A program made the translations under genes and the position numbers. Below the pieces are notes generated by a model, which made no database searches, was not told where the DNA came from, and was given only the letters and a program-made list of their open reading frames with translations. From assembly GCA_023258975.1 (NCBI GenBank), contig JAHFRD010000007.1, forward strand, positions 26,058-90,057: a stretch of 64,000 nucleotides of DNA, read 5' to 3'. Shown piece after piece: positions 7,943-35,911 of the stretch (within the stretch, counting starts at the first letter, position 1; every line of letters begins with the position of its first letter). The DNA is from Hydrogenophilales bacterium (GTDB taxonomy: Bacteria > Pseudomonadota > Gammaproteobacteria > Burkholderiales > Thiobacillaceae).

Positions 7943-8018
<76 letters not shown>

Positions 8019-8345: not shown

Positions 8346-8648
8346 ATGACAGACACCCCGCAACGCGCCACCGAATACGGAGAACAGGCCGCCATGCGTG
8401 GCCTCTCGCAAGACGACTGCCCTTATCGTCTGCACGACCTGTGCGCCTGCTGGCTGCGCGGCTGGCACGCTTGGCACCAGGCGGCAGCCGGTGCCGGCCG
8501 TGGAGGCCACCGCGCAAGGCCGCGCCGCCCTGGCGCGGTTGAAGGCCATGCTGCCATGATCACCATAGAGGTCGACGACCGCGCCATCCTCGACGCGCTG
8601 GCGCAAGCCGCGCAGTGGCTGACCAGGGCGCCCGGCGTCAGCGGCTAA
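8346..8648 (+). pseudogene. Prophage relic: an Rmf-like small protein fused by a frame error to the first ~25 codons of a Mu-G-type virion morphogenesis gene
   Basis: The N-terminal part YGEQAAMRGLSQDDCPYRLHDLCACWLRGWHAWHQ fits the Rmf signature (CPY...WL.GW). An alternative frame ends AQGRAALARLKAMLP-stop and overlaps ATGA with MITIEVDDRAILDALAQAAQ, which looks like the start of phage virion morphogenesis proteins. That reading stops after 30 codons. Confidence 0.4.
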
Positions 8649-8723: not shown

Positions 8724-10754
8724 TCAGCCACCGACCGCTTCCAGCGCTTCCTGCTGTGCCAGCCATTCGACTTCGAGTTGCTCCAGTTCCTTGCCCAGGG
8801 TGGCCTGCTCGAACAGAAATGCCTTGAGATATTCCTTGCGGCTTTCCGCGTAGATCGCCGGGTCGGCGAGCAGTCCTTCCAGTTCGAGCTTGCGTGTGTT
8901 GCGCCGCGCCATCTGTTCTTCCAGGCGCTTGATTCGGGTTTCGATGGGCTTTTTCTGGATCGACAGTCGTTGCCGGGCTTCGGCTTCCTGGCGCTTCTGT
9001 TCCTTGCGGTCGGCCACCGGCGGAGGTGGCGCCGTGGCGGACTCCGGCGCGGCCGGTTTGCCCAGCTTGGTCTTGAACAACCAGTCGCGGTAGTCGTCGA
9101 GGTCGCCGTCGAATTCCTTCAGGCCGCCGTCGGCGACGATCAGGAATTCCTCGGTGGTGGCGCGCAGCAGATGGCGGTCGTGCGAAACCAGTACCAGGGT
9201 GCCTTCGAACTGGGCCAGGGCGACGGTCAGGGCTTCGCGCGTTTCCAGGTCGAGGTGGTTGGTGGGTTCGTCGAGCAGCAACAGGTTGGGGCGTTGCCAG
9301 ACGATCAGGGCCAGGGCCAGGCGCGCCTTTTCGCCGCCGGAGAAGGGGGCGATGCGGGCACTGGCCATTTCGCCGACGAAGTTGAAACCGCCGAGGAAGT
9401 TGCGTAGTTCCTGTTCACGGATCTGGGGCGCGATTCTGGCCAGGTGCCACAGCGGGGTCTGGTCGTGGCGCAGCATTTCCACCTGATGCTGGGCGAAGTA
9501 GCCGATGGACAGGCCCTTGCCCTGGCTGACCGCGCCGGAAAGCGGCGACAGGTCGCCGACCAGGGTTTTGATGAGGGTCGATTTGCCGGCGCCGTTGACA
9601 CCCAGCAGGCCAATGCGCTGGCCGGCCTGGAGGGTGAGGTTGATGTTGGAGAGGATGCGTATTTCTCCCTCTCCCCGTGGGAGAGGGTCGGGGAGAGGGA
9701 GCGACGTATCACTTCGTGGCAGCGTCGATCGAAGTGCGGGCGTTGCTCCCTCTGATGAAGCCCCTCCTCCAGCGGGGGAGGGGAGTTTATAACCCGCCAC
9801 CACGTTTTCCAGCACCAGCAGCGGGTTCGGTGCCCGCTCCGGCTCGCGGAACTCGAAGCTGAAGGAAGCCGCAGCGTGGATGGGGGCGAGGTCTTCCATC
9901 TTTTCCAGCATCTTCATCCGCGATTGCGCCTGTTTGGCCTTGCTGGCCTTGGCCTTGAAGCGGTCGATGAAGGATTGCAGGTGGGCGCGTTCGCGCGCCT
10001 GTTTCTCGAACGTGGCCTGGCCCAGGGCGAGGTCGATGGCGCGCTGTTTCTCGAAGGTGGAGTAGTTGCCGCCGTAGCGCTTGATCTTCTTGTCGGCGAG
10101 GTGGGCGATGACGTTGACCACGCCGTCGAGAAAGTCGCGGTCGTGGGAAATGATGATGAGCGTGCCGGGGTAGCGTTTCAGCCAGTCTTCCAGCCAGAGG
10201 ATGGCGTCGAGGTCGAGGTGGTTGGTGGGCTCATCGAGCAACAGCAGATCGGACGGGCACATCAGCGCCTGGGCGAGGTTGAGGCGCATGCGCCAGCCGC
10301 CGGAGAAACTGGCGACCGGCCGGCCCATCTGTTCATGGCTGAAGCCGAGGCCGTTGAGCAGCGTTTCCCCGCGCGAGCGCACGGTGTAGGCGTCGGCGTC
10401 GGCCAGGGCGGTGTGCAGTTCGCCAATCAGGTGGCCGTCATGGGCGGCCTCCGCTTCCGCCAGCCGGCTTTCCAGGCGGCGCAGCGTGGTGTCGCCGTCG
10501 ATGGCGTAATCCAGCGCGGTACGGTCGAGGGCCGGGGTTTCCTGGGCGACGTGGGCGATGCGCCAGGCGGCGGGAAAATCGACATCGCCGGCGTCGGGTT
10601 GCAATTCGCCGCGCAGCAACGCGAACAGGCTGGATTTGCCGGAGCCGTTGGCGCCGATGAAGCCGATTTTTTCGCCCGGATTGAGCGCGAGGTCGGCGGC
10701 TTCCAGCAAGGGCTTGGTGCCGCGAATGAGGGTGAGTTTCTGGAGTCGGATCAT
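8724..10754 (-). CDS. yheS: ABC-F family ATPase (YheS-like, two ATPase domains) carrying a ~40-residue repeat-derived insertion
   Basis: 676 aa. Motifs seen: GANGSGKSS, FSGGWRMRLNLAQALMCPSDLLLLDEPTNHLD, GVNGAGKSTLIK, FSGGEKARLALALIVWQRPNLLLLDEPTNHLD, and a C-terminal coiled coil. It is nearly collinear with my memory of E. coli YheS, except for KLPSPAGGGASSEGATPALRSTLPRSDTSLPLPDPLPRGEGE between AGY and IRILSNINL. Confidence 0.9.
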   Translation of the reverse strand: MIRLQKLTLIRGTKPLLEAADLALNPGEKIGFIGANGSGKSSLFALLRGELQPDAGDVDFPAAWRIAHVAQETPALDRTALDYAIDGDTTLRRLESRLAEAEAAHDGHLIGELHTALADADAYTVRSRGETLLNGLGFSHEQMGRPVASFSGGWRMRLNLAQALMCPSDLLLLDEPTNHLDLDAILWLEDWLKRYPGTLIIISHDRDFLDGVVNVIAHLADKKIKRYGGNYSTFEKQRAIDLALGQATFEKQARERAHLQSFIDRFKAKASKAKQAQSRMKMLEKMEDLAPIHAAASFSFEFREPERAPNPLLVLENVVAGYKLPSPAGGGASSEGATPALRSTLPRSDTSLPLPDPLPRGEGEIRILSNINLTLQAGQRIGLLGVNGAGKSTLIKTLVGDLSPLSGAVSQGKGLSIGYFAQHQVEMLRHDQTPLWHLARIAPQIREQELRNFLGGFNFVGEMASARIAPFSGGEKARLALALIVWQRPNLLLLDEPTNHLDLETREALTVALAQFEGTLVLVSHDRHLLRATTEEFLIVADGGLKEFDGDLDDYRDWLFKTKLGKPAAPESATAPPPPVADRKEQKRQEAEARQRLSIQKKPIETRIKRLEEQMARRNTRKLELEGLLADPAIYAESRKEYLKAFLFEQATLGKELEQLEVEWLAQQEALEAVGG
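9663..9788. repeat. Nested-palindrome GC-rich repeat element lying in frame inside the ABC-F CDS
   Basis: The plus strand is ctccctctccccgtgggagagggtcggggagagggag - cgacgtatcacttcgtggcagcgtcgatcgaagtgcgggcgttg - ctccctctgatgaagcccctcctccagcgggggaggggag. Pairings seen: ccctctccc/gggagaggg, ctccctctcccc/ggggagagggag, cacttcg/cgaagtg, cccctcc/ggagggg. The 3' module is homologous to 31158-31205. Confidence 0.7.
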
Positions 10755-13071: not shown

Positions 13072-13905
13072 TTACTTGGCGGGCTTGGCCGGAGCGGCAG
13101 CGGGAGCGGCCGGGGCGGTCGGGAACGGGAAGGCGAAGGGCTGGCCGGCGGCCGGAACCTGCAGCATCTGGGTCCAGGCATTCGGGTCGAAGAAGTTGAA
13201 GGCGGGCGCGGCGCCAGCGGCGGGCGCGGTCCAGGCGGTGGGGGCGGCGAAGTTCGGCAGGGCCGGCAGGGTCGGTAGAGCAGTCGTGGCACCGGGGGTC
13301 ATGAAGCCTTTCCACATGTCGCCGTAAGAACCCGGGTTCAGGGAAGCGCCCGCCCAGCCCATGTACAGGTTGGGGTTGATCGGGGCCATCATGAGTTGCA
13401 GGGAACGGGGATCCAGGGGGGACATCATCCACTTCATGTACACGTTGGGGTTGACGGAGTTCGTCAGCATCGACATGACCTTGGGATCCAGCGGGGACAT
13501 GGCCCAACGCATCATCTTGCCCGGATCGGACAGTTGGGTCAGCACGGCGGTGTAGAAGTTGGGATCCAGGGAAGCGGCCAGCCACTTCATGTACACGTTC
13601 GGGTCGGCGAAGGCGGCCACGTTCGTATAGGCGCCGGGCTGGGTCATGGAGTTCATCATGTTCAGCCAGTTGCCCGGCTCCATCATGTTGTTGCCCATGG
13701 TGGTATAGAAACCGGGTTCGGTGACGGCGTTCAGCCAGGGCACAAATACCTTCGGATCCTTGTAGGCGGACATGTTCTGGGTCATGTCGGTCATGCGGGC
13801 CAGCCACTGTTCCGGGGTCTGGGGAACTTGCTTGGCGGGAGCGTCAGCGAAGGCGGTGGGCGCGGCACAGACCAGCAGGGCGGCGACGAGGGATTTCATT
13901 TTCAT
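13072..13905 (-). CDS. Secreted Met/Trp-rich tandem-repeat protein with a Pro/Ala-rich tail, unknown function
   Basis: Start at MKMKSLVAALLVCAAPTAFA, preceded by aaggag. It has about 12 consecutive 12-14-residue repeats (D/N/E/Q)P(N/G/K)x(Y/W/M)xxW(L/M)..., for example DPNVYMKWLAASL, NPNVYMKWMMSPL and NPNLYMGWAGASL. The mature protein has no His and no Cys. Confidence 0.7.
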   Translation of the reverse strand: MKMKSLVAALLVCAAPTAFADAPAKQVPQTPEQWLARMTDMTQNMSAYKDPKVFVPWLNAVTEPGFYTTMGNNMMEPGNWLNMMNSMTQPGAYTNVAAFADPNVYMKWLAASLDPNFYTAVLTQLSDPGKMMRWAMSPLDPKVMSMLTNSVNPNVYMKWMMSPLDPRSLQLMMAPINPNLYMGWAGASLNPGSYGDMWKGFMTPGATTALPTLPALPNFAAPTAWTAPAAGAAPAFNFFDPNAWTQMLQVPAAGQPFAFPFPTAPAAPAAAPAKPAK

Positions 13906-15387: not shown

Positions 15388-16175
15388 ATAACTTGCTCAA
15401 CAGCCTGCGCGGCATCGGCGCCCATGTGATCGACGGCATCTGGCGCATGGGTGTGGCGACGCGCTTCTTCTTGATGACCCTGCTGCAATCCGGGCAGAGC
15501 TTTCGCCGCTTTCATCTGATCATTCGCGAGATATTCAGCGCCGGGGTGCTATCGCTGATCATCATCCTGGTGTCCGGCCTGTTCGTCGGCATGGTGCTCG
15601 GCCTGCAAGGCTACGAGACCTTGCAGACTTACGGTTCCGAGGAGGCGCTGGGGGTACTGGTTTCCCTTTCACTGGTGCGCGAACTGGGGCCGGTGGTCGC
15701 CGCCCTGTTGTTCGCCAGCCGCGCCGGTTCCGCGATCACGGCCGAGATCGGCCTGATGAAGGCTACCGAACAGCTCGCGGCGATGGAGATGATGGCGGTG
15801 GACCCGGTCGCTCGCGTGGTGGCGCCACGCTTCTGGGGCGCGGTGATTTCCATGCCGATCCTCGCCGCGCTGTTCTCGGCGATGGGCATTCTCGGCGGCT
15901 ATCTGGTCGGTGTGGTACTGATCGGTGTCGATGAGGGCGCATTCTGGTCGCAGATGCAGGCGGCCGTCGATTTTCGTGAAGACATCCTCAATGGCGTCAT
16001 CAAGAGCGTGGTGTTCGGCGTAGCGGTGACGGCCATCGCGCTGTTCGAGGGCTACGACGCGCCACCCACGGCGGAGGGGGTCTCCCGCGCCACCACGCGC
16101 ACCGTGGTGACTTCTTCCCTGGCCATCCTGGGCCTGGATTTCATCCTGACCGCATTCATGTTCCGTGGAGTCTGA
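15384..16175 (+). CDS. mlaE: Mla ABC transporter permease
   Basis: 263-aa polytopic membrane protein with a 4-nt overlap with mlaF. It carries typical MlaE motifs ([27 protein letters not shown]). Confidence 0.9.
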
Positions 16176-16178
16176 TCC

Positions 16179-16658
16179 ATGCAGCGCGCAACTCTCGATC
16201 TTTGGGTAGGTATCTTCGTGGTGGCCGGCATTGCGGCCGTCCTGTTTCTCGCCCTGCGGGTGGGCAACATGGGCAGCTTCGACAGTGCCTCGACCTACAC
16301 GGTGAAAGCCTCGTTCGACAATATCGGCGGCCTCAAGGCGCGCGCGCCGATCAAGAGCGCGGGTGTGGTGGTGGGCCGTGTCTCCGAGATCGGTTTCGAT
16401 TCCAACATGTATGAAGCCACGGTAATGATGAAGCTGGATACCCGTTACAAATTCCCCAAGGACACCAGCGCTTCCATCATGACTTCGGGCCTCCTGGGCG
16501 AGCAGTACATCGCGCTTGAAGCCGGTGGGGAAGACAAGAAGTTGGTCGAGGGCGACCATCTGAAGATCACCCAGGGCGCCGTGGTTCTGGAGAATCTGAT
16601 CGGCCAGTTCCTCTACAACAAATCGGAAGGCGAGTCGAAAACCGCAGAACCTCGATAA
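16179..16658 (+). CDS. mlaD: MCE-domain protein MlaD
   Basis: It has an N-terminal TM anchor (DLWVGIFVVAGIAAVLFLAL) and an MCE domain (GGLKARAPIKSAGVVVGRV). Confidence 0.9.
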   Translation: MQRATLDLWVGIFVVAGIAAVLFLALRVGNMGSFDSASTYTVKASFDNIGGLKARAPIKSAGVVVGRVSEIGFDSNMYEATVMMKLDTRYKFPKDTSASIMTSGLLGEQYIALEAGGEDKKLVEGDHLKITQGAVVLENLIGQFLYNKSEGESKTAEPR

Positions 16659-16798
16659 GGCGGGAACCCGCGACAACCGTATCCTGTTCCGGCGAATGGC
16701 CTATCACGAATGCCCGCTTTTCCGGTAGGAACATACGCTTGACCATTCGACCCACTGGCCCTCACAGTAAAAACTGTTTCGACCCATCAGGACACACC

Positions 16799-17410
16799 AT
16801 GTATCGCTTGTTCAAATACTTCATTCTCATGCTCGCCATCGGCGGGCTCTCCCTGTCCGCGCAGGCCGCCGAAATCGGGCCCGATACCCTGGCCCGGAAC
16901 GTCACCAACGACGTGTTGCGCATCGTCCGCCAGGACAAGGACATCGCCAGCGGCAATACCTCCAAGGTCAATGCGCTGGTCGAGCAGAAAATCCTGCCTT
17001 TGTTCAATTTCAAACACATGACCCAGTTGGCCGTCGCCAAACACTGGCCCAGGGCCACACCGGAACAGCAGGAAAGCCTGACCGACCAGTTTCGCGGCAT
17101 GTTGGTACGCACCTATGCTTCGTCCCTGACCAGCGTGGCGGACTACAAAATCGAGTTCAAACCGTTCCGTTCCACTCCCGGCGATACCGAAGTCACCGTC
17201 AGTACCGAAGTGAGCAAGCCCGGCGCGCCGCCCATCCCCATCGATTACCGCCTGGAAAAGACCGACAACAATGGCTGGAAGGTGTTCGATGTGATCGTGG
17301 ACAACGTAAGCCTGGTCACGGTTTACCGCAGTTCGTTCAATTCCGAAGTGCGCAAGGGTGGCGTCGATGGACTGATTGCCGCGCTTGAACGCCGCAACAG
17401 CCGGCCCTGA
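16799..17410 (+). CDS. mlaC: Periplasmic phospholipid-binding protein MlaC (Tgt2/toluene tolerance family)
   Basis: Start taken at the MYRLFKYFILMLAIGGLSLSAQA signal peptide. Position and size fit MlaC. Confidence 0.8.
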   Translation: MYRLFKYFILMLAIGGLSLSAQAAEIGPDTLARNVTNDVLRIVRQDKDIASGNTSKVNALVEQKILPLFNFKHMTQLAVAKHWPRATPEQQESLTDQFRGMLVRTYASSLTSVADYKIEFKPFRSTPGDTEVTVSTEVSKPGAPPIPIDYRLEKTDNNGWKVFDVIVDNVSLVTVYRSSFNSEVRKGGVDGLIAALERRNSRP

Positions 17411-17417
17411 GGCTCGC

Positions 17418-17690
17418 ATGATGCGTGTGGAAGCCGGCGTGGCCGTGCTCGACGGCGACCTGACCCTGGCCAACGCCAGCCAGTGGCTGGCCGAGGGAGA
17501 AGCCGCTCTGAAACAGGGCGTGGCGGCCTTCGACCTGGCGGGAGTCGGCCATCTCGACTCCGCCGCCCTCAGCCTGATGTTGTCCCTGCGCCGTCGCGCC
17601 GAGGCGGCGGGCAGCGCCATCGAATTCCGCAACATTCCGGAAAGCCTTGCCAGCCTCGCCAAGTTGTACGGCGTCGCGGAGCAAATTTAG
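17418..17690 (+). CDS. mlaB: STAS-domain protein MlaB
   Basis: ~90 aa following mlaC, with the STAS-like segment LDSAALSLMLSLRRRAEAAG. The start at 17418 or 17421 is chosen to avoid overlapping mlaC. Confidence 0.7.
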   Translation: MMRVEAGVAVLDGDLTLANASQWLAEGEAALKQGVAAFDLAGVGHLDSAALSLMLSLRRRAEAAGSAIEFRNIPESLASLAKLYGVAEQI

Positions 17691-17699
17691 CTTCTCTTC

Positions 17700-18611
17700 A
17701 TGACAACCGCCGTCCGCCTGCGCGGCGTGGAAAAGCGGTTTCCGCGTGTGCACGCCTTGCGCGGGGTCGATCTCGACATTGAACAAGGCGAGTTTTTCGC
17801 CTTGCTGGGCCCCAACGGCGCGGGCAAGACCACGCTCATCAGCATTCTCGCCGGGCTCACGCGCGCGAGTGCCGGATCGGTGGAAATCATGGGTTTCGAC
17901 GTGACCCGCCAGTACCGTGAAGCACGCCGCGCCTTGGGCGTGGTGCCGCAGGAACTGGTGTACGACCCCTTCTTTACCGTGCGCGAGACCTTGCGGCTAC
18001 AGTCCGGCTATTTCGGACTTCGCCGCAACGACGCCTGGATCGATGAGTTGCTGGACAACCTGGGACTCGCCGATAAAGCGGATACCTATACGCGCCGACT
18101 CTCCGGCGGCATGAAGCGGCGCGTCCTGGTGGCCCAGGCGCTGGTGCACAAGCCGCCGGTGATCGTCCTCGACGAGCCCACCGCCGGTGTCGATGTGGAA
18201 TTGCGGCAATCGCTCTGGGCCTTTATTCGCCGCCTCAATCGCGAGGGCCATAGCGTCGTCCTGACCACGCACTACCTGGAGGAGGCCGAGGCGCTCTGCA
18301 AGCGGGTGGCCATGCTCAAGGAAGGCCGCGTGGTCGCGCTGGATCGCACCGACAACCTGCTGCGCGCCGGGGCCGAGCGGCGTCTGCTGCTGGATCTGGA
18401 TGCCTCCGAATTGCCCGCCTCGCTGCAACCTCTCCTGATCGGCGGAGAGGGGCGGCATTTCATCCTCGATCTTCCCGACTACGGCGACCTCGAAGGCATC
18501 CTCGCCAATCTGCGCGAGGCGGGTATCGGCATCCGCGACATGAGCCTGGCGCAGGCCGATCTGGAAAAGGTGTTTCTGAAAATCATGAACGCCACGACGG
18601 AGCGGACATGA
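17700..18611 (+). CDS. ABC-2 type transporter ATP-binding protein
   Basis: Motifs seen: GPNGAGKTT, LSGGMKRRVLVAQAL, VIVLDEPTAGVD. Confidence 0.9.
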   Translation: MTTAVRLRGVEKRFPRVHALRGVDLDIEQGEFFALLGPNGAGKTTLISILAGLTRASAGSVEIMGFDVTRQYREARRALGVVPQELVYDPFFTVRETLRLQSGYFGLRRNDAWIDELLDNLGLADKADTYTRRLSGGMKRRVLVAQALVHKPPVIVLDEPTAGVDVELRQSLWAFIRRLNREGHSVVLTTHYLEEAEALCKRVAMLKEGRVVALDRTDNLLRAGAERRLLLDLDASELPASLQPLLIGGEGRHFILDLPDYGDLEGILANLREAGIGIRDMSLAQADLEKVFLKIMNATTERT

Positions 18612-29201: not shown

Positions 29202-29927
29202 ATGGTTCACAAACCTCCACGCATGAGCGAAGTGCTCAACAAGATTCAGGATGAGATGGCGCGGCAAATCAGGAAGAGTGGCGCCCCTGAAGAGGTGCAT
29301 GCCTTCCTCATGCGGGACTGGTCGCGCCTGCAGGCCGGTATTTTCCAGGCCAAGGGCAATCAGCACGGCGACTGGAAGGCCGGCTGGGAAACCGCCAATG
29401 CCCTGCTCTGGAGTCTGGCGCCGAAACGGGGGCTGGAGGAAACCGGCGCGCTGTTGCGCATGCTGCCCACCTTGCTGTCCCGCCTGCATGCCGGCTGCGC
29501 CGCGTTGGGGATGCCATTGGGCGAGCGCGATGCCCTGTTTGAACGTCTGGCGATGATGCACGCCGCTCTGGCAAGAGAGGGGCTGCAAGCCCGGCCGGAG
29601 GAAGAAGGGCCGATTACCCGATTGCGAGAGGAGGACGTGACGGGTTCCGACGACTCCGACCTGCGCGATCTGACCGCCCCCGATCTGCCGGCCACCGATT
29701 CGCCGACCGCCGATCCGCGCATCGTCCCGCCGCCGCTGAAACTGGGTGATCGGGTAGTGTTCAGGGGGGAGGGGGGCGAGCGCCTGCTAACTCTCACCTG
29801 GGTCAGCCCGATGGGCGGCATGTATCTGTTCGCCAATGAACAGGGCCTGGATGCGATGACCCTCACTCACGCCCGGCTGGAAGCGAAGTTTCAGGCCGGG
29901 GATGCCAGCCTCCCCCCAATGCCCTGA
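29202..29927 (+). CDS. Short protein resembling only the C-terminal third of DUF1631 proteins
   Basis: gaggg sits 5 nt before ATG 29202. The segments ...WETANALLWSLAPK...LLPTLLSRL...ERDALFERLAMMH... and the C-terminal LKLGDRVVFRG..LLTLTWVSPMGGMYLFANEQG match my recollection of DUF1631 C-termini, but full-length members are ~700+ aa. The last 65 nt overlap the convergent outer-membrane gene. Confidence 0.45.
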   Translation: MVHKPPRMSEVLNKIQDEMARQIRKSGAPEEVHAFLMRDWSRLQAGIFQAKGNQHGDWKAGWETANALLWSLAPKRGLEETGALLRMLPTLLSRLHAGCAALGMPLGERDALFERLAMMHAALAREGLQARPEEEGPITRLREEDVTGSDDSDLRDLTAPDLPATDSPTADPRIVPPPLKLGDRVVFRGEGGERLLTLTWVSPMGGMYLFANEQGLDAMTLTHARLEAKFQAGDASLPPMP

Positions 29928-31311
29928 ACAATCCCGCCGTTGCCGCCAGTTGCACGCGGCGGGCTTCGATGCGGTTCTGTTCCGCCTGATACAGGTTGCG
30001 CTGGGCGTCGAGTACTTCCAGGTAGCTGGAAACGCCATTCTGGTAGCGCAGCCCGGCGAGTTCGGCGGCGCGCGACAGCGCCTCGGCGCGGCGGCTTTCG
30101 GCGGCCTCCGACTCGCGCGCCTGGCGGTTGGCGACCAGCGCGTCGAGCACTTCCTTGAAGGCGACGCGCAGGGCTTGCTCGTAGGCCAGCAGCGCCTGTT
30201 CCTGGCGCGCCGCTTCGCCTTTCAGGGCGGCCTCGGTGCGGCCGGCGTTGTAAACGGTCTGTACCAGGCTGGCGCCGATGCCCCAGAGGGTGGCGGGGCC
30301 GCTGAACAGGTTGGAGAGGGCTTTGCTTTCCGAGCCCAGGTTGGCGGTGAGCGAGAGGCTGGGGTAGATCGCGGCCCGCGTTTCCAGCACGCGCGCCTCG
30401 GCGCCGACGAGTCTTTGTTCCGCCTGGCGAATATCAGGGCGACGCGCGAGCAGGTCGGCGGGAAGGCCCGCCGGGATGGTGGGGGGTAGGGTCAGTTCCC
30501 GCAGCGGTTTGCCACGCGCCAGCGGGTTTTCCGTCAGCGCGCGCGGCGAGCGGCCAAGCAGCAGGGCCAGCGCGGTTTCCTGCTGGCGCAACTGGCGCTG
30601 GAGTTCGGCCTGAGCCGCTTCCACCGTGGCCAGTTCCGCTTCCGCCTGGCGCAGGGGAAGTTCCGAGGCGATCCCTGCGTCGAAACGCAGTTTGTACAAG
30701 TCGACCGCCTCGCGCCGGTTGTTCAGGGTGTCCCGAGTGAGCAGCAGCGCGGCATCCAGGGTGGTGATCTGGAAATACGCCTGGGCGACGGCGCCGGCCA
30801 GTCCGGCGCGAACCACTTCGCGGGCGTATTCCGAGGCCAGCAGGTCGGCGCGGGCGGCGGCGCTCGCCTGCCGGTAACGGCCCCAGAGATCGACTTCGTA
30901 GGCGGCTTGAAGATTGACCTGGAACTTGTTGTTGATCGGAGAGGGGATGGGGAAACTGCCCTTCTCCGTCGCGCGGGTGCGGCCGGCATTGCCGCCGATA
31001 TGTGCCTCGGGGTGGCGATCGGCTTCCCTCAGGCCCAGGGTGGAGCGGGCTTCCTCGATGCGCGCGGCGGCGAGAAGGAGGTCGCTGTTGCGGGCGAGGG
31101 CCTCGTCGATCAGGAGGGTGAGGGCGGGGTCGTTGAATTGGGTCCACCACGCTTGCAGGCGTTGCTCCCTCACCCCCGCCCCCTCTCCCAGGGGGAGAGG
31201 GGAGGTTGGCGGCCACACCGCCGGTAGATCGGGGCTGGTTTTTCTCAGTGTGGGCAGGCTGACGCAGCCGGACAGGCTCAAGGCGAGGAGGGCGATCAGG
31301 AGCTTATTCAT
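29863..31311 (-). CDS. RND efflux outer-membrane lipoprotein, NodT/OprM family
   Basis: MNKLLIALLALSLSGC contains a lipobox, and the protein has two OEP repeats. The ORF could start at 31323 (METTMNK). The start overlaps the pump gene stop (ATGAATAA). Confidence 0.9.
   Translation of the reverse strand: MNKLLIALLALSLSGCVSLPTLRKTSPDLPAVWPPTSPLPLGEGAGVREQRLQAWWTQFNDPALTLLIDEALARNSDLLLAAARIEEARSTLGLREADRHPEAHIGGNAGRTRATEKGSFPIPSPINNKFQVNLQAAYEVDLWGRYRQASAAARADLLASEYAREVVRAGLAGAVAQAYFQITTLDAALLLTRDTLNNRREAVDLYKLRFDAGIASELPLRQAEAELATVEAAQAELQRQLRQQETALALLLGRSPRALTENPLARGKPLRELTLPPTIPAGLPADLLARRPDIRQAEQRLVGAEARVLETRAAIYPSLSLTANLGSESKALSNLFSGPATLWGIGASLVQTVYNAGRTEAALKGEAARQEQALLAYEQALRVAFKEVLDALVANRQARESEAAESRRAEALSRAAELAGLRYQNGVSSYLEVLDAQRNLYQAEQNRIEARRVQLAATAGLFRALGGGWHPRPETSLPAGRE
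31158..31205. repeat. Second copy of the GC-rich palindromic module, inside the outer-membrane lipoprotein CDS
   Basis: ggcgttgctccctcacccccgccccctctcccagggggagaggggagg contains a hairpin, ccccctctccc/gggagaggg(g). It shares the exact 14-mer ggcgttgctccctc and the following palindrome with 9739-9786. It is translated as TSPLPLGEGAGVREQR. Confidence 0.65.
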
Positions 31312-34300
31312 GGTCGTCTCCATGCCGGGCGGCGCCGTGGTAGTGGATCGGGCCGGGAAAGAGCTTGCGCACCAACAGGTAGAGCACCGGCACGACGAAG
31401 ACCGCCAGCACCGTGGCGGCGATCATGCCGCCCATGACGCCGGTGCCGATGGCGTGGCGGCTGGCGGCGCCGGCGCCGCTGGAAATCGCCAGCGGCAGCA
31501 CGCCGAAGATGAAGGCGATGGAAGTCATGATGATGGGGCGAAAGCGCAGGCGGCAGGCCTGCATGACGGCGTCCAGCGAGCTTTTGCCCTGGGCCTCCAT
31601 CTGGCGCGCGAATTCCACGATCAGGATCGCGTTCTTGGCCGACAGGCCGATGATGGCGATCAGGCCGACCTTGAAATAGACATCGTTGGGCAGGTCGCGC
31701 AGGGTCACCGCCAGCACCGCACCGAACACGCCCAGCGGCACCACCAGCAGCACCGCCAGCGGCACGGTCCAGGATTCATACAACGCGGCCAGACACATGA
31801 ACACGACGATCAGCGACAGCGCGAACAGCACCGGCGCCTGCGCGCCCGAGAGGCGTTCCTCGAACGAGGTGCCGGACCACTCGAAGCCGATGCCCGGCGG
31901 CAGCTTGCCGGCGATTTCCTGCATCGCCTGCATCGCCTCGCCGGTGCTGCGGCCGGGTGCCGGGCCACCGGCGATCTTCATGGCCGGTACGCCGTTGTAG
32001 CGGTCGAGTTTGGGCGAACCCACCACCCAGCGCGGCGTGGCGATCTCGGAGAGCGGCACCATGCCGCCTTTCCGCGTCCGCATGCGCAGTGAAAGCAGAC
32101 CTTCCGGGGTGGCGCGCGCGTGGGCGTCCAGTTGCATCACCACGCGCAGGACGCGGCCGTCGCGGATGAAGTCGTTGACATAGGCGGAGCCCAGCGCCAC
32201 GGCCAGGGTCTGGTTGAGTTCCGCCAGGTCGATGCCGAGGCTGCCGGCCTTGAGGCGGTCGATGTCGAGCAGCAACTGGATGGCCGGTTCCTTGCCTTCC
32301 GGGCGTACACCGGCCAGGCGGGCATCCTGGGAGGCCATGCCCAACACCAGATTGCGCGCTTCCAGCAATTTCTCGCGGCCGAGGCCGGCGCGATCCTGCA
32401 AGCGGAAGTCGAAACCGCCCACCGCCGCCAGTTCCGGAATCGGCGGCGGGTTGAGGGCGAACAGCATGGCCTGCTTGATGCCGAACAGCGCCATGTTGGC
32501 GCGCTGCACCACTTGCAGGGCGTGGTCGCCGGGCTTGGTGCGTTCGTCCCAATCCTTCAGGCGCACGAAGGCGATGGCCGCGTCCTGGCCCTTGCCGAAG
32601 AAGGAGAAGCCGGCCACGCCGACCACCTTGGCCACTTCCGGTTGTTTGAGGAAGTGTTGCTCCAGTTGCGAGAGCACGGCCACGGTGCGTTCCTGGGTGG
32701 CGCCGGCCGGGAGCTGCACGATGGAAATCAGATAGCCCTGGTCTTCATCGGGCAGAAAACCGGTGGGCAGGCGCAGCAACAGGAAGGCGGTGAGGCCGGT
32801 CAGGCCGAGGAACAGCAGCATCACGCGCAGCGGCCGTTTCACCGCGCTGGTCACGCCCGCCAGATAGCCGCAGGTGGTGCGGTCGAAGAAACGGGTGAAC
32901 AGGCCGAAGAAACCGCTGTGATGCTCCATCTGTTCCCGGGTCAGGCCCTTGAACAGGGTCGCGCACAGGGCCGGCGTCAGGCTGATCGCCAGGAAGGCGG
33001 AGAACATCATGGTCATCACCAGGGTTACCGCGAACTGGCGGTAGATGGCGCCCACCGAACCGGAGAAGAAGGCCATCGGAATGAACACCGCCGACAGCAC
33101 CACCGTGATGCCGACGATGGCGCCGAAGATCTGGCCCATCGCCTTGGAGGTCGCCTCGCGCGCCGGCAGGCCTTCCTGGGTCATGATGCGCTCGACGTTC
33201 TCCACCACGACGATGGCGTCGTCCACCACGATGCCGATGGCCAGCACCATCGCGAACAGCGACAGCACGTTGATCGAGTAGCCCAGCAGATACAGGCCGA
33301 CCAGGGTGCCGACCAGCGACACCGGCACCACCAGGGTCGGGATGATGGCGGCGCGCAGATTCTGCAGGAACAGCCACATCACCAGGAACACCAGGAAAAA
33401 GGCTTCGGCCAGGGTGTAGGCCACCTCACGTATGGAGATTTCCACGAAGCGCGAGGTGTCGTAGGGCACGTCCCAACTCACCCCCTGGGGGAAGAACTTC
33501 GCCAGTTCCGCCATGCGCGCCTTGACCGCCTTGGCGGTTTCCAGGGCGTTGCCGCCGGGTGCCAGCTTGACGCCGACCGCCGCCGTGGGTTTGCCGTTCA
33601 AACGCGCCTGCACGGTGTAATCCTGGGCGCCCAGTTCGATGCGGGCGACGTCCTTCAAGCGCACGGCGGCGCCGTTGGCGGCGGTACGCAACAGAATCTC
33701 GCCGAACTCGGCCGGGTTTTTCAGGCGCCCCTGGGTGACCACCGTGGCGGCCAGTTGCTGGCCGGGCAGGGCGGGCAGTTGTCCGAGTTCGCCGGTCGCC
33801 AGCTGCACGTTTTGCGCCTGTACCGCGCCCAGCGCCTCGCCCGGCGTCATGTTGAAACTGGCCAGTTTCAGCGGGTCCAGCCACAGGCGCATGGCGTATT
33901 CCGTGCCGAACAGGTTGGCCTCGCCCACGCCCGGCACGCGGCGCAGGTTTTCCAACACGTTGGCGGCGGTGAAACTGCCCAGGTCGATGGCGTTGCGCGA
34001 CTGATCCGGCGAGAACACGGTCACGAACATCATGTAGTTGCGCCGCGCCTTTGCCACCGTGATGCCTTGCCGCCGTACCTCGTCGGGCAGGCGCGCTTCC
34101 ACCCGCTTGATGCGGTTCTGCGCCTCCACCGAGGCGATGTCGAGGTTGACCCCGGTGGCGAAGGTGAGGGTCAGGGTGAGTACGCCGTTGGAATCCGAGT
34201 TGGACTCCATGTAGAGCAGGTTGTCCAGCCCGTTCATCTCCTGCTCGATCAGGCTGGTGACGGCGTCCTCCACCACCTGCGCGCTGGCGCCGGGGTAGAC

Positions 34301-34444
34301 GGCGGTGATGGAGAGCGCCGGCGGGGCGACTTCCGGATATTGCGAAACCGGCAGCTTCGGGAACACCAGAAAACCCGCCAGCAGGATGGACAGCGCCACG
34401 ACCCAGGCGAAGATGGGACGGTCGATGAAGAAACGGGGGAGCAT
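31304..34444 (-). CDS. RND multidrug efflux pump, AcrB/MexB family
   Basis: 1046 aa, starting MLPRFFIDRPIFAWVVALSILLAG, with 12-TM HAE1 architecture. Confidence 0.95.
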   Translation of the reverse strand: MLPRFFIDRPIFAWVVALSILLAGFLVFPKLPVSQYPEVAPPALSITAVYPGASAQVVEDAVTSLIEQEMNGLDNLLYMESNSDSNGVLTLTLTFATGVNLDIASVEAQNRIKRVEARLPDEVRRQGITVAKARRNYMMFVTVFSPDQSRNAIDLGSFTAANVLENLRRVPGVGEANLFGTEYAMRLWLDPLKLASFNMTPGEALGAVQAQNVQLATGELGQLPALPGQQLAATVVTQGRLKNPAEFGEILLRTAANGAAVRLKDVARIELGAQDYTVQARLNGKPTAAVGVKLAPGGNALETAKAVKARMAELAKFFPQGVSWDVPYDTSRFVEISIREVAYTLAEAFFLVFLVMWLFLQNLRAAIIPTLVVPVSLVGTLVGLYLLGYSINVLSLFAMVLAIGIVVDDAIVVVENVERIMTQEGLPAREATSKAMGQIFGAIVGITVVLSAVFIPMAFFSGSVGAIYRQFAVTLVMTMMFSAFLAISLTPALCATLFKGLTREQMEHHSGFFGLFTRFFDRTTCGYLAGVTSAVKRPLRVMLLFLGLTGLTAFLLLRLPTGFLPDEDQGYLISIVQLPAGATQERTVAVLSQLEQHFLKQPEVAKVVGVAGFSFFGKGQDAAIAFVRLKDWDERTKPGDHALQVVQRANMALFGIKQAMLFALNPPPIPELAAVGGFDFRLQDRAGLGREKLLEARNLVLGMASQDARLAGVRPEGKEPAIQLLLDIDRLKAGSLGIDLAELNQTLAVALGSAYVNDFIRDGRVLRVVMQLDAHARATPEGLLSLRMRTRKGGMVPLSEIATPRWVVGSPKLDRYNGVPAMKIAGGPAPGRSTGEAMQAMQEIAGKLPPGIGFEWSGTSFEERLSGAQAPVLFALSLIVVFMCLAALYESWTVPLAVLLVVPLGVFGAVLAVTLRDLPNDVYFKVGLIAIIGLSAKNAILIVEFARQMEAQGKSSLDAVMQACRLRFRPIIMTSIAFIFGVLPLAISSGAGAASRHAIGTGVMGGMIAATVLAVFVVPVLYLLVRKLFPGPIHYHGAARHGDDHE

Positions 34445-34449
34445 GGGGA

Positions 34450-34477
34450 TTAGGCGTGAGGCGTTAGGGGTGAGGCG
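34450..34477. repeat. Tandem 14-mer (ttaggcgtgaggcg / ttaggggtgaggcg) immediately upstream of the pump start codon
   Basis: Seen directly, with 13 of 14 positions identical. Confidence 0.7.
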
Positions 34478-34484
34478 TCGAATT

Positions 34485-34760
34485 GGCCGTCATTCCCGCG
34501 CAAGCGGGAATCCAGGCTTTGGGCCTGATGGCGCTTATCCGGGATTGTCCATTGATACCGCCACCTTCCCGGCAAACGCTGTAGCGCCGGCGTCTCGCCG
34601 GCTCGTTCGTCTGACTGGAAGAACTGGCCGGCGAGCCCTGAAGGATACCGTCCCTGCGGGACATAACGCCGGCGCTACACGGGCGCGCGTCAGGCTTCGT
34701 CGCTAATGGGCAAGCCGGGCTTGGTTGAACTGGATTCCCGCCTGCTCGGGAATGACGGCC
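34485..34760. mobile_element. 276-bp MITE-like element with 31-bp terminal inverted repeats, between the adaptor and pump genes
   Basis: The left terminal repeat is ggccgtcattcccgcgcaagcgggaatccag (34485-34515) and the right one is ctggattcccgcctgctcgggaatgacggcc (34730-34760). The three mismatches fall in or next to the internal hairpin loop. Each repeat contains an attcccgc-N4-gcgggaat type hairpin. The interior carries inverted gtagcgccggcg motifs (34581-34592 and 34667-34678). No credible ORF is present. Confidence 0.7.
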
Positions 34761-34765
34761 GGGCA

Positions 34766-35911
34766 TCATGGCTTGGCGGGAACGGCCTTGACCGGGCTGC
34801 CCGGCCGGGCTTTCTGGATGCCGTTGACGATGACCTGTTCACCGCCTTTCAGTCCCTCACTGATGATCCAGTCGCCGCCTGACAGGCCACCGGTTTTCAC
34901 CGGTTGCGGCAGCACCTTGCCGTCCGCGCCGACCAACATCACTGCCTGGCCTTGTGGACTGACCTGGACCGCGCGTTGCGGCACGACGATGGCGTTGTCC
35001 ACCTTGGCCACCGGCAGGCGCACGGTGACGAACTGGCCGGGCAACAGGGTACGGTCATGATTGGGAAACTCGGCGCGCAAACCCACCGATCCGGTGGCCG
35101 GATCCACCGCCAGATCGTTGAACAACAGCTTGCCGGGATGCGGGTATTCACGGCCGTTTTCCAGCACCAGTTTCACCGGCGCCTTGCTCGCCACGGAGTG
35201 GCCCTGGCGTTGCGCCTCGCGCAGATTGAGAAACTCGGCGCTGGATTGCGAGAAATTCACCCAGATCGGGTCGTACTGCTCGATGTTGGCCAACGGCGTC
35301 GCCTCGCCCTTGCCCACCAGCGCGCCCTCGCTCACCAGGGCGCGGCCAATGCGCCCGGAAATGGGCGCGGTGACATTGGCATAGGAAAGGTCGATCTCGG
35401 CGCGCGCCACCACCGCCTGCGCCGCCGCCACCTCGGCGTCCGCCTGCGCCCTGGCCGCCACGGCCTGATCCAGATCCTGCCTGCTGATCGCCTTGCTGCC
35501 CGCCAGCGCCTGCATGCGCTCCTGGTTCTGCCCCGCGATCAAAGCTTGCGCTTGTGCTTTGGCGAGATTGGCGCGGGCGCTGGCCAGATTGGCCGCGAGC
35601 GCGCGGCCGTCGATACGGAACAACAGCGCGCCGGCCTTGACCTCGCTTCCCTCGACATAAGCGCGACCCTCCAGAATGCCTTCCACCCGCGCCCGCACTT
35701 CCGCCGCGCGCACCGCCTGCAACCGCCCCGGCGCCTCGACGGTCAGAGGCACGCCACGCGGCGCCACGGTGACGACTTCCACCTCGGGCGGCGGCATGCC
35801 GGCCATGCCACCCGGAGGTGGGGCGGATTGCGGTTTGCAGGCGGTAAGCGAGGCGAGCAGCAGGACTGCTGGCAGCCAGGCGCGCGGGGGAAGCGAGGGC
35901 AGGGGTTTCAT
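34766..35911 (-). CDS. RND efflux periplasmic adaptor (AcrA/MexA family) lipoprotein
   Basis: MKPLPSLPPRAWLPAVLLLASLTAC contains a lipobox, followed by HlyD-like barrel-sandwich and hairpin regions. Confidence 0.9.
   Translation of the reverse strand: MKPLPSLPPRAWLPAVLLLASLTACKPQSAPPPGGMAGMPPPEVEVVTVAPRGVPLTVEAPGRLQAVRAAEVRARVEGILEGRAYVEGSEVKAGALLFRIDGRALAANLASARANLAKAQAQALIAGQNQERMQALAGSKAISRQDLDQAVAARAQADAEVAAAQAVVARAEIDLSYANVTAPISGRIGRALVSEGALVGKGEATPLANIEQYDPIWVNFSQSSAEFLNLREAQRQGHSVASKAPVKLVLENGREYPHPGKLLFNDLAVDPATGSVGLRAEFPNHDRTLLPGQFVTVRLPVAKVDNAIVVPQRAVQVSPQGQAVMLVGADGKVLPQPVKTGGLSGGDWIISEGLKGGEQVIVNGIQKARPGSPVKAVPAKP

Follow-up and report, generated by a model that had tools for sequence, protein, structure and literature searches.

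We analysed a 64,000-nucleotide stretch of the genome of a Hydrogenophilales bacterium (contig JAHFRD010000007.1, positions 26,058 to 90,057; hereafter the window), in which the gene of a YheS-type ABC-F ATPase carries an in-frame palindromic insert of 126 nucleotides. The arms of this insert belong to the published BoxC/PIT/TMECO family and do not represent a new repeat family; we refer to them as TM arms. The insert is very probably a TM inverted doublet, a selfish passenger tolerated by a permissive loop of the second nucleotide-binding domain (NBD2), where, being in frame, free of stops and harmless to the structure, it was retained and has been drifting since, the loop acting as a selective sieve.

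To place the insert in its host protein, the product of the gene was compared with NCBIfam models and with the structure of E. coli YheS. The top NCBIfam match is PRK10636, with 826 bits against a cutoff of 917 bits and a best-scoring stretch that ends at residue 322, and the cutoff of the ABC-F model NF000355 is exceeded. The alignment with YheS (9vvi_W, E = 1e-215) falls into two blocks, query 5-322 with chain 15-332 and query 362-673 with chain 332-639, so that it breaks at the AGY motif and restarts at the end of the insert, where query 362 corresponds to chain 332. E. coli YheS reads SAGY-GD-RIIL at this position, and the window has the 42 residues K323-E364 in place of 'GD'. An earlier reading of the sequence alone had claimed collinearity with YheS except after AGY and the replacement of two residues by 42, and the alignment bears out both. 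Residues G321 and Y322 are invariant in 85 sequences, and so is L368. If the turn is counted as two residues long, as it is in E. coli, the first Gly of the Walker A motif GVNGAGKS follows 23 residues after Tyr322, and for this reason we take Tyr322 to be the adenine-stacking tyrosine of the A-loop, a feature of ABC ATPases reportedly described by Ambudkar and co-workers in 2006.

On the gene strand the insert consists of arm 1 (9785-9741), a spacer (9740-9707) and arm 2 (9706-9665), the two arms being inverted copies of one module of ~42-45 nt. Arm 1 reads CTCCCCTCCCCC-GCT-GGAGGAGGGG-CTTCATCA-GAGGGAGCAACG and arm 2 reads CGTCGCTCCCTCTCCCC-GA-CCCTCTCCC-ACG-GGGAGAGGGAG. Read on the plus strand, the intact arm is CCCTCTCCC-CGT-GGGAGAGGG-TCG-GGGAGAGGG at 9667-9699, followed by the inner extension AGCGACG at 9700-9706. 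Its design comprises a 9-bp C-rich stem, the G-rich complement and a mirror G-rich third block; since both G blocks are GGGAGAGGG, the triads of the predicted triplex would be G.G:C or A.A:T. The other arm is degenerate: it retains its hairpin with one mismatch, and its third G block is mutated, reading GCTTCATCA in the window where the closest relative (L001) has GCCGGGGGA in the codon alignment. The inner block 9741-9753 pairs with 9694-9706 in a 13-nt long-range pairing. The three hairpins named in the sequence-only reading were all located, CCCTCTCCC/GGGAGAGGG at 9667-9675/9679-9687 (overall 9667-9687), CCCCTCCTCC/GGGGGAGGGG at 9761-9770/9774-9783 (9761-9783) and the hairpin of the spacer (9710-9736), and its statement that the length is a multiple of three with a stop-free used frame also stands, with the gene open throughout and four of the six frames of the insert free of stops. 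The minus-strand RNA of 9655-9796 folds with a dG of -67.7 kcal/mol, compared with a shuffled mean of -47.5 (z = -4.92), and none of 200 shuffles folded as well. A search of 9400-10000 against Rfam in E-value mode returned chance-level miRNA and sRNA matches, far under the gathering scores.

Table 1. Positions of the insert and its parts, of the host genes in the window and of related cassettes in other genomes
Feature	Location	Strand	Remarks
In-frame 126-nt insert: inverted TM/BoxC arm doublet with spacer	9663..9788	minus	codes for K323-E364 (KLPSPAGGGASSEGATPALRSTLPRSDTSLPLPDPLPRGEGE)
Intact TM arm	9665..9706	plus	strict regular-expression match to TMECO consensus at 9667-9699
34-nt spacer	9707..9740	none	own 7-bp hairpin, CACTTCG (9710-9716) / CGAAGTG (9730-9736)
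Degenerate second TM arm, inverted	9741..9785	minus	'hairpin only' pattern matches
Host ABC-F gene, YheS-type ATPase	8724..10754	minus	676 aa, intact frame; open reading frame (ORF) list, NCBIfam and PDB alignment
Solo TM arm, second copy in window	31167..31201	minus	pattern fit; module spans ~31160-31210
NodT-family efflux outer-membrane lipoprotein gene, host of solo arm	29863..31323	minus	TIGR01845
TM-DUF559-TM cassette in MetRS	L020, 2111-2649		
TM-DUF559-TM cassette in PriA	L097, 2407-2839		
TM-DUF559-TM cassettes in frame in larger ORFs	L131, L132, L133, L139, L148		~950-1400 each
Further listed proteins with TM-DUF559-TM cassettes	P0241-P0246, P0262, P0275		

The TMECO consensus was given by Holder et al. 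(2015, PMC4666352) as CCCTCNCCC-N3-6-GGGNGAGGG-N3-GGGNGAGGG. The same source equates TMECO with the BoxC repeat of the 1990s and with the PIT (potential intrastrand triplex) element of Hoyne and Maher, a family studied by Bachellier et al. in the 1990s and by Hoyne et al. in 2000 and 2002 (PMC4666352). The segment 9667-9699 of the plus strand is an exact 33-nt fit to this consensus under a strict regular expression, and the strict pattern gave zero matches in shuffled windows; the insert is therefore assigned to the family. In the arm at 9741-9785 the hairpin part alone fits, the strict pattern of the third block being absent. The two arms form a closely spaced inverted pair, a feature of the family, with 34 nt between them, and 37 inverted pairs found elsewhere typically have spacers of 19-48 nt. 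TMECO was counted at 3610 copies in 262 proteobacterial genomes, and the 23 copies of E. coli K-12 are described as 'always located intergenically' and include five inverted pairs (PMC4666352). The triplex forms in vitro on single strands, its formation in vivo not having been demonstrated; TMECO loci are hypervariable among strains, deletions at inverted TM pairs leave a hairpin, and no association with known mobile elements was detected (PMC4666352). A scan of species-representative genomes with a two-block pattern stricter than TMECO matched at least 120 contigs, and Pseudomonas, Enterobacteriaceae, Xanthomonas, Chloroflexota, Acidobacteriota, Planctomycetota and Verrucomicrobiota are among the matches listed. 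A blastn search of E. coli genomes with one arm yielded weak unannotated matches only (84% identity, E ~0.9).

These results bear on the idea that no repeat was inserted at all and that a low-complexity Pro/Gly linker expanded in place, the palindromes being a by-product of CCN/GGN codons. The peptide of the insert is indeed of low complexity, and orthologues with an empty loop also vary in its length (4 versus 8-9 residues). Against this stand the 33 nt that fit the E. coli-defined consensus exactly, a fit never seen in shuffles, the presence of the same module in unrelated genes and in intergenic DNA of many phyla, and the arms themselves, which are inverted copies that include the non-coding-like extensions CGTTGC/GCAACG. 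The consensus match and the copies found elsewhere in effect refute expansion in place, which is extremely improbable.

For the source genome, copies were counted in the 64-kb window, which holds two TM loci with three arms, all inside ORFs and in frame. The second locus is a solo arm that reads CCCTCTCCC-CCT-GGGAGAGGG-GGCGG-GGGTGAGGG, with a loop 2 of 5 nt where the consensus has 3. It lies in the NodT gene, which matches its family model with 360 bits against a cutoff of 210, and is read in frame as SPLPLGEGAGV or PPTSPLPLGEGAGVREQ. This arm occupies a variable linker after the lipobox; it is common to the closest NodT orthologues, and others at 75-80% identity are without it. Two TM loci are also found in the 22 kb of L001. 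That the element would have further copies had been proposed beforehand, and the NodT arm, a doublet in an AAA_33 gene of L001 and the contigs of diverse bacteria matched by the scan confirm it. The L001 doublet (16623-16732) is the second in-frame one of that sequence and is read as LLPPPPGEGWGERTAPVQATTSKQAPLPLPQPLPQGVRG in a gene for an AAA_33/zeta-toxin-like kinase at 16111-17754.

To explore how the loop differs among orthologues, we compared the best 120 homologues (76-100% identical; cluster representatives from metagenome assemblies, with source names that include metagenome-assembled genomes of Gallionellaceae, Thiobacillus, Hydrogenophilales and Parasulfuritortus) between the invariant G321-Y322 and the invariant L368. 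The loop is empty in 62 of the 120, reading 'GDKT' or 8-9 residues such as 'RTEDGDKA', and many of the orthologues at 76-86% identity are of this kind. The TM type accounts for 44/120 (35 long, 9 short or solo) and reads 'PSPxGGGAGGEG...PLPNPPPxGEGAK'. Two other types carry repetitive extragenic palindromic (REP) elements: type B, with a GTAG-tagged REP ('ARMERSGIRG...PDSxxAASGL'), in 6/120, and type C, with a CGTC-tagged REP ('RHSGEGRNPE...WTPASAGVT'), in 8/120. The expectation that distant YheS proteins have no homologous 40-residue segment holds for E. coli, which has two residues there. The DNA of nine loci (L001-L009) agrees with the loop states seen in the proteins: L008 and L002 are empty, L001, L005 and L009 have TM doublets (L009 with three arms), L006 has a solo arm, L004 has an inverted pair of GTAGCCCGGATGCAGCG.GAGCGGAATCCGGG with the GTAG tag of type B, and L007 has CGTCATTCCGGCGGAAGCCGGAATCCAG and a partner hairpin with the CGTC tag of type C. 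The alleles of the orthologues thus form a graded series of triple, double and solo arms.

The same comparison addresses the concern that the insert is an artefact of assembly or binning, or that the gene is a pseudogene. The assembly behind the window is of metagenome type, and palindromes and repeats can be mis-assembled, but the identical protein occurs on two contigs from different sources, homologous inserts are present in independent NCBI, ENA and JGI assemblies, and the frame is open, with 312 residues downstream of the insert that are 91-95% identical to those of relatives. An explanation of this sort is scarcely credible.

In a neighbour-joining tree built with the loop masked, the loop states are interleaved at the tips, and Fitch parsimony counted 28 changes (bootstrap 25-30) versus ~48 with shuffled labels. 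The distribution of the TM type can be explained either by one old TM insertion with many losses or by several separate insertions. The entry points after the Tyr are 1-4 codons for TM arms, 2-3 codons for type C and after 'RPEE' for type B, so that those of the three families differ by 1-5 codons within the loop. Because the entry points are unequal, we read the loop as a permissive site that filters insertions rather than as a sequence-specific target. A target TTAC/TTAT preceding the insert, as in IS608-type elements, was considered as the main explanation and rejected, as the families enter 1-5 codons apart. Inspection of the doublets in the window, L001, L005, L006 and L009 and of 36 cassettes described below detected no consistent direct repeat beside them that could be a target-site duplication.

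Some further observations concern these loops and the REP families. Two TM-type orthologues, P0047 and P0049, have an extra 24-residue segment nested in the doublet, PTAGPACPAGYGGAEQCSSKPHLR and TSCPTDWAASQSGSSGAKHALPSP, possibly a fourth kind of insert. In empty alleles the loop has either 4 residues (GDKT) or 8-9 (RxEGExDK, RTEDGDKA; P0005-P0015, P0096-P0106 and others), and the longer loops contain EGE/GEG-like codons and might be the footprint of a lost TM arm. In the window, type B REPs show no copies above chance. An intergenic composite of nested palindromes was observed at 34445-34770, upstream of the gene for an RND pump at 31304-34444. It contains a CGTC-tagged REP pair (34489-34513 and 34732-34756, 94% complementary over 31 nt) of the same family as the type C insert of Thiobacillus ABC-F alleles; within the pair lies a further palindrome, TGTAGCGCCGGCG...CGCCGGCGCTACA, and a G-rich near-repeat, GGCGTGAGGCGTTAGGGGTGAGGCGT, lies at 34450-34480.

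The divergence between the window and L001, whose ABC-F protein is 89% identical, indicates how the insert has evolved since the two separated. The spacer of L001 has diverged and is recognisably homologous to that of the window, and the two inserts thus descend from one event. Over the insert the two sequences have a nucleotide identity of 0.756 and an amino-acid identity of 0.68; over the rest of the gene the values are 0.878 and 0.91, with 0.76 at third codon positions. As the identity of the insert equals that of third positions, its peptide drifts at about the synonymous rate, with the flanking protein under strong purifying selection. The frame is uninterrupted and this selection extends to the part downstream of the insert, so the gene is expected to be functional with the insert in place. 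At one stem position a compensatory change was observed, T:A in the window and C:G in L001, and arm 1 of the window has lost its third block; the stems are under at most weak constraint, and their decay is visible.

Structure prediction agrees with a tolerated insertion. AlphaFold2, run with an alignment of 85 sequences (overall predicted TM-score, pTM, 0.39, attributed to the two-lobed protein), gave residues 324-363 a predicted local distance difference test score (pLDDT) below 50, as coil with no secondary structure, between the confident strands 313-322 and 365-375. The surface loop anticipated for the insert is thus predicted as a disordered loop between β1 and β2 of NBD2, and the model suggests that it hangs from the solvent-exposed β1-β2 turn, right after Tyr322.

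Together, these data suggest the following history. A TM inverted doublet would have inserted in the β1-β2 turn of NBD2, starting one residue after Tyr322, and the gene would have stayed open because the arms are G/C-rich and nearly stop-free and the net length is divisible by three. Translation of the insert would give a disordered surface loop, rich in Pro, Gly, Ser and Glu and tolerated by the ATPase, and the element, as a selfish or neutral passenger apparently without function, would be inherited vertically and then decay, shorten to solo arms, be lost or be replaced. The loop would be among the few places of a very conserved protein where insertions survive selection, and three repeat families would occur in it because it is such a sieve.

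Several points weigh against this history. Translation of the insert is deduced from two things only, the open frame and the conservation of the sequence that follows. The turnover counted on the neighbour-joining tree could be inflated by recombination between alleles. Neither a target-site duplication nor a transposase was found, so that the word 'mobile' rests on distribution. In addition, the persistence of the TM type in 44/120 orthologues and the compensatory T:A/C:G change could mean a constraint on DNA or RNA structure. The last point leads to an alternative in which the insert was exapted, the loop modulating ATP binding or ribosome contact, or the mRNA or DNA structure regulating expression through pausing, mRNA stability or replication-linked variation. 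Such a role would agree with the retention of the TM insert in many lineages, with its having outlasted the split between the window and L001 (12% nucleotide divergence), with the compensatory change, with the very stable RNA structure and with the position next to an invariant catalytic-site residue. However, the peptide diverges at about the synonymous rate, the insert is often lost or swapped for unrelated sequence in the same loop, the loop is predicted to be disordered and one arm is already decaying in the window. PIT elements are also without promoter or terminator activity in E. coli, as far as Hoyne and Maher (2002) are cited in PMC4666352. We regard exaptation as quite improbable.

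The in-frame position of the window copies contrasts with the intergenic location of the E. coli K-12 copies, and we examined where TM arms lie in other genomes. Among 216 TM matches in the 120 contigs listed, 41% fall within stop-free frames of at least 250 codons, versus 76% of random positions, which shows that TM arms lean intergenic. Nevertheless, 29 of the 216 listed matches lie at least 80 codons deep in long ORFs, several of them in real proteins, so that 'always intergenic' describes E. coli K-12 rather than defining the family. Pfam domains lie on both sides of, or across, an in-frame arm in IleRS, MetRS, PriA, UDP-galactopyranose mutase (Glf), an E2 acyltransferase linker, the NAD-ligase LigA, a radical-SAM protein and VgrG. 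More than one frame and orientation of the element is in use (PSPxGGG, PLPxGEG, LTPTLS), and the motif rarely contains a stop: of the frames of a randomly filled consensus 84% are open, versus 80% for random GC-rich 33-mers.

In several of these genomes the arms enclose a gene. A DUF559 (PF04480) domain lies in frame between two TM arms in a MetRS and in a PriA gene, and five further embedded cassettes were found in another MetRS of a different organism, in HrpA, in an NTP-transferase and in two DNA methyltransferases; fusions of NTP-transferase and DUF559 make up at least 8 protein clusters. All four DUF559 matches in loci fetched earlier have inverted TM arms on both sides. We then sampled the best 80 of 568 DUF559 relatives from metagenomes, 70 of which had sufficient flank: TM arms lie within 300 bp on both sides in 37/70, on one side in 21/70 and on neither in 12/70, in a sample whose seeds were drawn from TM-flanked genes and which may be one DUF559 subfamily. 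The density of TM arms is 4.05 per kb up to 150 bp from the DUF559 gene versus 0.11 per kb beyond 300 bp, a 37-fold enrichment that spans loci of 35-71% GC. The median length of a cassette is 455 bp, and the DUF559 frame is open through both arms in 23/36. Left and right loops are identical in 8/36 cassettes versus 5%, and the identity of the arms is 0.91 versus 0.81; this similarity, modestly above background, is supportive but not decisive.

The cassettes raise the alternative that the ABC-F doublet is the remnant of a TM-DUF559-TM cassette that once occupied the loop and lost its cargo by deletion between the arms. The doublet has the polarity of 32 of the 37 two-sided DUF559 loci, with C-rich stems outermost and third blocks inside; cassettes do occur in frame in housekeeping genes (MetRS, PriA, HrpA, NTP-transferase); deletions at inverted TM pairs that retain the hairpin have been published (Holder et al., PMC4666352); and the gradation from triple to solo arms fits such an origin. 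Nonetheless, a chimeric query of ABC-F flanks and cassette retrieved no ABC-F with DUF559 in its loop in the best 120 of 8000 candidates, and tblastn with two DUF559 domains, run as permissively as E = 10, detected no trace of the domain in the window or in L001-L009. Among cargo-less pairs both polarities are represented, 37 head-to-head and 49 tail-to-tail, which makes polarity weak evidence, and we rejected the argument that it proves descent from a cassette. Some DUF559 genes are flanked by whole doublets. An origin as a cassette remnant is accordingly unlikely, and a tolerated passenger doublet remains our preferred explanation of the insert.

TM arms may be the ends of a DUF559 element, or DUF559 genes may home into TM doublets. 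DUF559 has been grouped with Vsr among the PD-(D/E)XK nucleases (PMC1189080), Vsr-like folds serve homing endonucleases (PMC2677866), and a solved structure of DUF559, 3HRL, is described as 'endonuclease-like'. The DUF559 endonuclease is the only candidate for an enzyme that moves TM arms, and we give slightly less than even weight to its being linked to how they are inserted. A link of DUF559 or ycjD to TM repeats was not found in the searchable literature, judged by title or abstract. We tentatively propose, while leaning somewhat against it, that a widespread DUF559 cassette of ~455 bp has BoxC/PIT/TM arms as its ends or as its homing target. The cassette would be translationally transparent, with no stop in either arm and with Pro/Gly-rich linkers encoded by both, would live in frame in essential genes (MetRS, PriA, HrpA, NTP-transferases), and would have cargo-less doublets such as that of ABC-F as its non-autonomous derivatives. 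With regard to E. coli K-12, we observed that TMECO no. 9 lies 168 bp downstream of ycjD, a DUF559 gene (NC_000913.3 1351407-1351760), and that a TM-like hairpin, CCCTCTCCCTGAAAGAGCGAGGGGG, overlaps the stop codon of ycjD (L130, NC_000913.3 1351205-1351760); upstream of ycjD the same locus has no TM arm and an unrelated palindrome instead. In Dyella, a 33-residue DUF559 fragment adjoins a TM arm (L039 7179-7308) and looks like a decaying cassette.

The window element can be compared with several known systems. It resembles BoxC/PIT/TMECO in the consensus sequence of its arm and the three-block design with mirror G blocks, in the inverted pairing seen at 5 E. coli loci, and in the hypervariability of the loci between relatives, with deletions that retain the hairpin. 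It differs from the intergenic BoxC copies of E. coli K-12 in that both window loci lie in genes, in frame and presumably translated, in that one arm is degenerate, and in its host, a Gallionellaceae-like betaproteobacterium. The sequence-only reading had likened the insert to the Rickettsia palindromic elements (RPEs; Ogata et al. 2000, reviewed in PMC10969869), and the likeness is upheld: a palindromic repeat of ~100-150 nt stands in frame in a conserved housekeeping gene where the fold tolerates it, at a predicted disordered loop, and is absent from E. coli YheS, its translation being a deduction here. The window arms, in contrast, fit the BoxC consensus (a separation made without direct comparison to RPE sequences), their host is a free-living bacterium with a high-GC genome, and the TM element is read in several frames and orientations, whereas each RPE family has a conserved peptide.

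The same reading had also called the insert a REP- or MITE-like (miniature inverted-repeat transposable element) repeat. An in-frame palindromic repeat with further copies it is, but the GTAG/CGTC tag and the target-site duplication are lacking and the family was already published. Intragenic GTAG/CGTC REPs occur in known genes as dimers that span 20-30 codons and, in Thauera, up to 43-82 (Di Nocera et al. 2013, PMC3733652); they have been interpreted as neutral inserts in linkers and loops, and different REPs occupy about the same site in Xanthomonas recB (PMC3733652). The type B and type C inserts of the ABC-F orthologues bear such tags (GTAGCCCGGATG and CGTCATTCCGGC), those of L004 and L007 among them, and so does the intergenic pair at 34489-34513/34732-34756. 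The window arms have no such end tag and have a three-block design instead of a single stem; the inner ends of TM arms are mostly CGTTGC, or CGTCGC, followed by a C-rich block, and the outer ends are CT|CCCTCTCCC. No link of TM arms to the REP-associated tyrosine transposase (RAYT) is known and none turned up, no PF01797 search of the window ORFs having been made. As in a MITE, the window element is short and of non-coding origin, with terminal inverted repeats of 42-45 nt around a short spacer, and the TM element is apparently multi-copy, with two loci in the window, and polymorphic in presence and absence. Unlike MITEs, TM doublets show no target-site duplication on inspection, and the only gene found with TM arms encodes the DUF559 PD-(D/E)XK endonuclease and no transposase. 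To our knowledge, no parent insertion sequence with a transposase exists for TM doublets.

We also compared the homing systems, namely inteins, free-standing homing endonucleases, the Vsr-like family (Dassa et al. 2009, PMC2677866) and I-Bth0305I (PMC3239194). The cassettes of other genomes resemble homing endonuclease genes and inteins in placing an ORF for a Vsr-like-fold endonuclease in frame in MetRS, PriA and HrpA. Unlike inteins, they have no apparent splicing domain and would remain in the host protein, their homing being putative; the window element, unlike homing endonuclease genes, has no endonuclease. In-frame palindromic repeats (RPEs and intragenic REPs), the BoxC/PIT/TMECO family and the neutral reading of inserts in loops and linkers are already published. 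To judge from the searchable literature, three points are new: the presumed translation of inserted BoxC/TM arms, the occupation of the ABC-F loop by three families that turn over rapidly, and the DUF559-TM cassette.

Other features were noted around the host gene. A tRNA-Thr (CGT) gene lies at 7943-8018 on the minus strand, and a 100-aa ORF at 8346-8648, directly downstream of the ABC-F gene, has a weak Pfam match to ribosome modulation factor (RMF), so that two translation-related genes are neighbours. GC-rich direct repeats with GGCGGGCGCGG units 18 nt apart at 13201-13247, and a 52-nt unit that occurs three times at 13333-13612, at spacings of 75 and 153 nt, probably reflect a repeated protein segment.

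For the host protein, the insert means a stretch of 42 residues that derives from a repeat, apparently has no function and lies one residue from the presumed adenine-stacking tyrosine, and annotation and structure modelling should treat K323-E364 as an insertion and not as a lineage-specific domain. A single protein loop in which three unrelated repeat families can repeatedly settle is a natural experiment on insertion-tolerant sites. BoxC/PIT/TMECO, strictly intergenic in E. coli, would be translated parts of many housekeeping proteins elsewhere, and its tight linkage with DUF559 suggests a route by which an orphan repeat family might move. If the proposal on the DUF559 cassette is true, a repeat family orphaned for 30 years would gain a candidate enzyme and a testable mechanism of mobility, and repeat-encoded loops would be a general source of insertions in bacterial housekeeping proteins.

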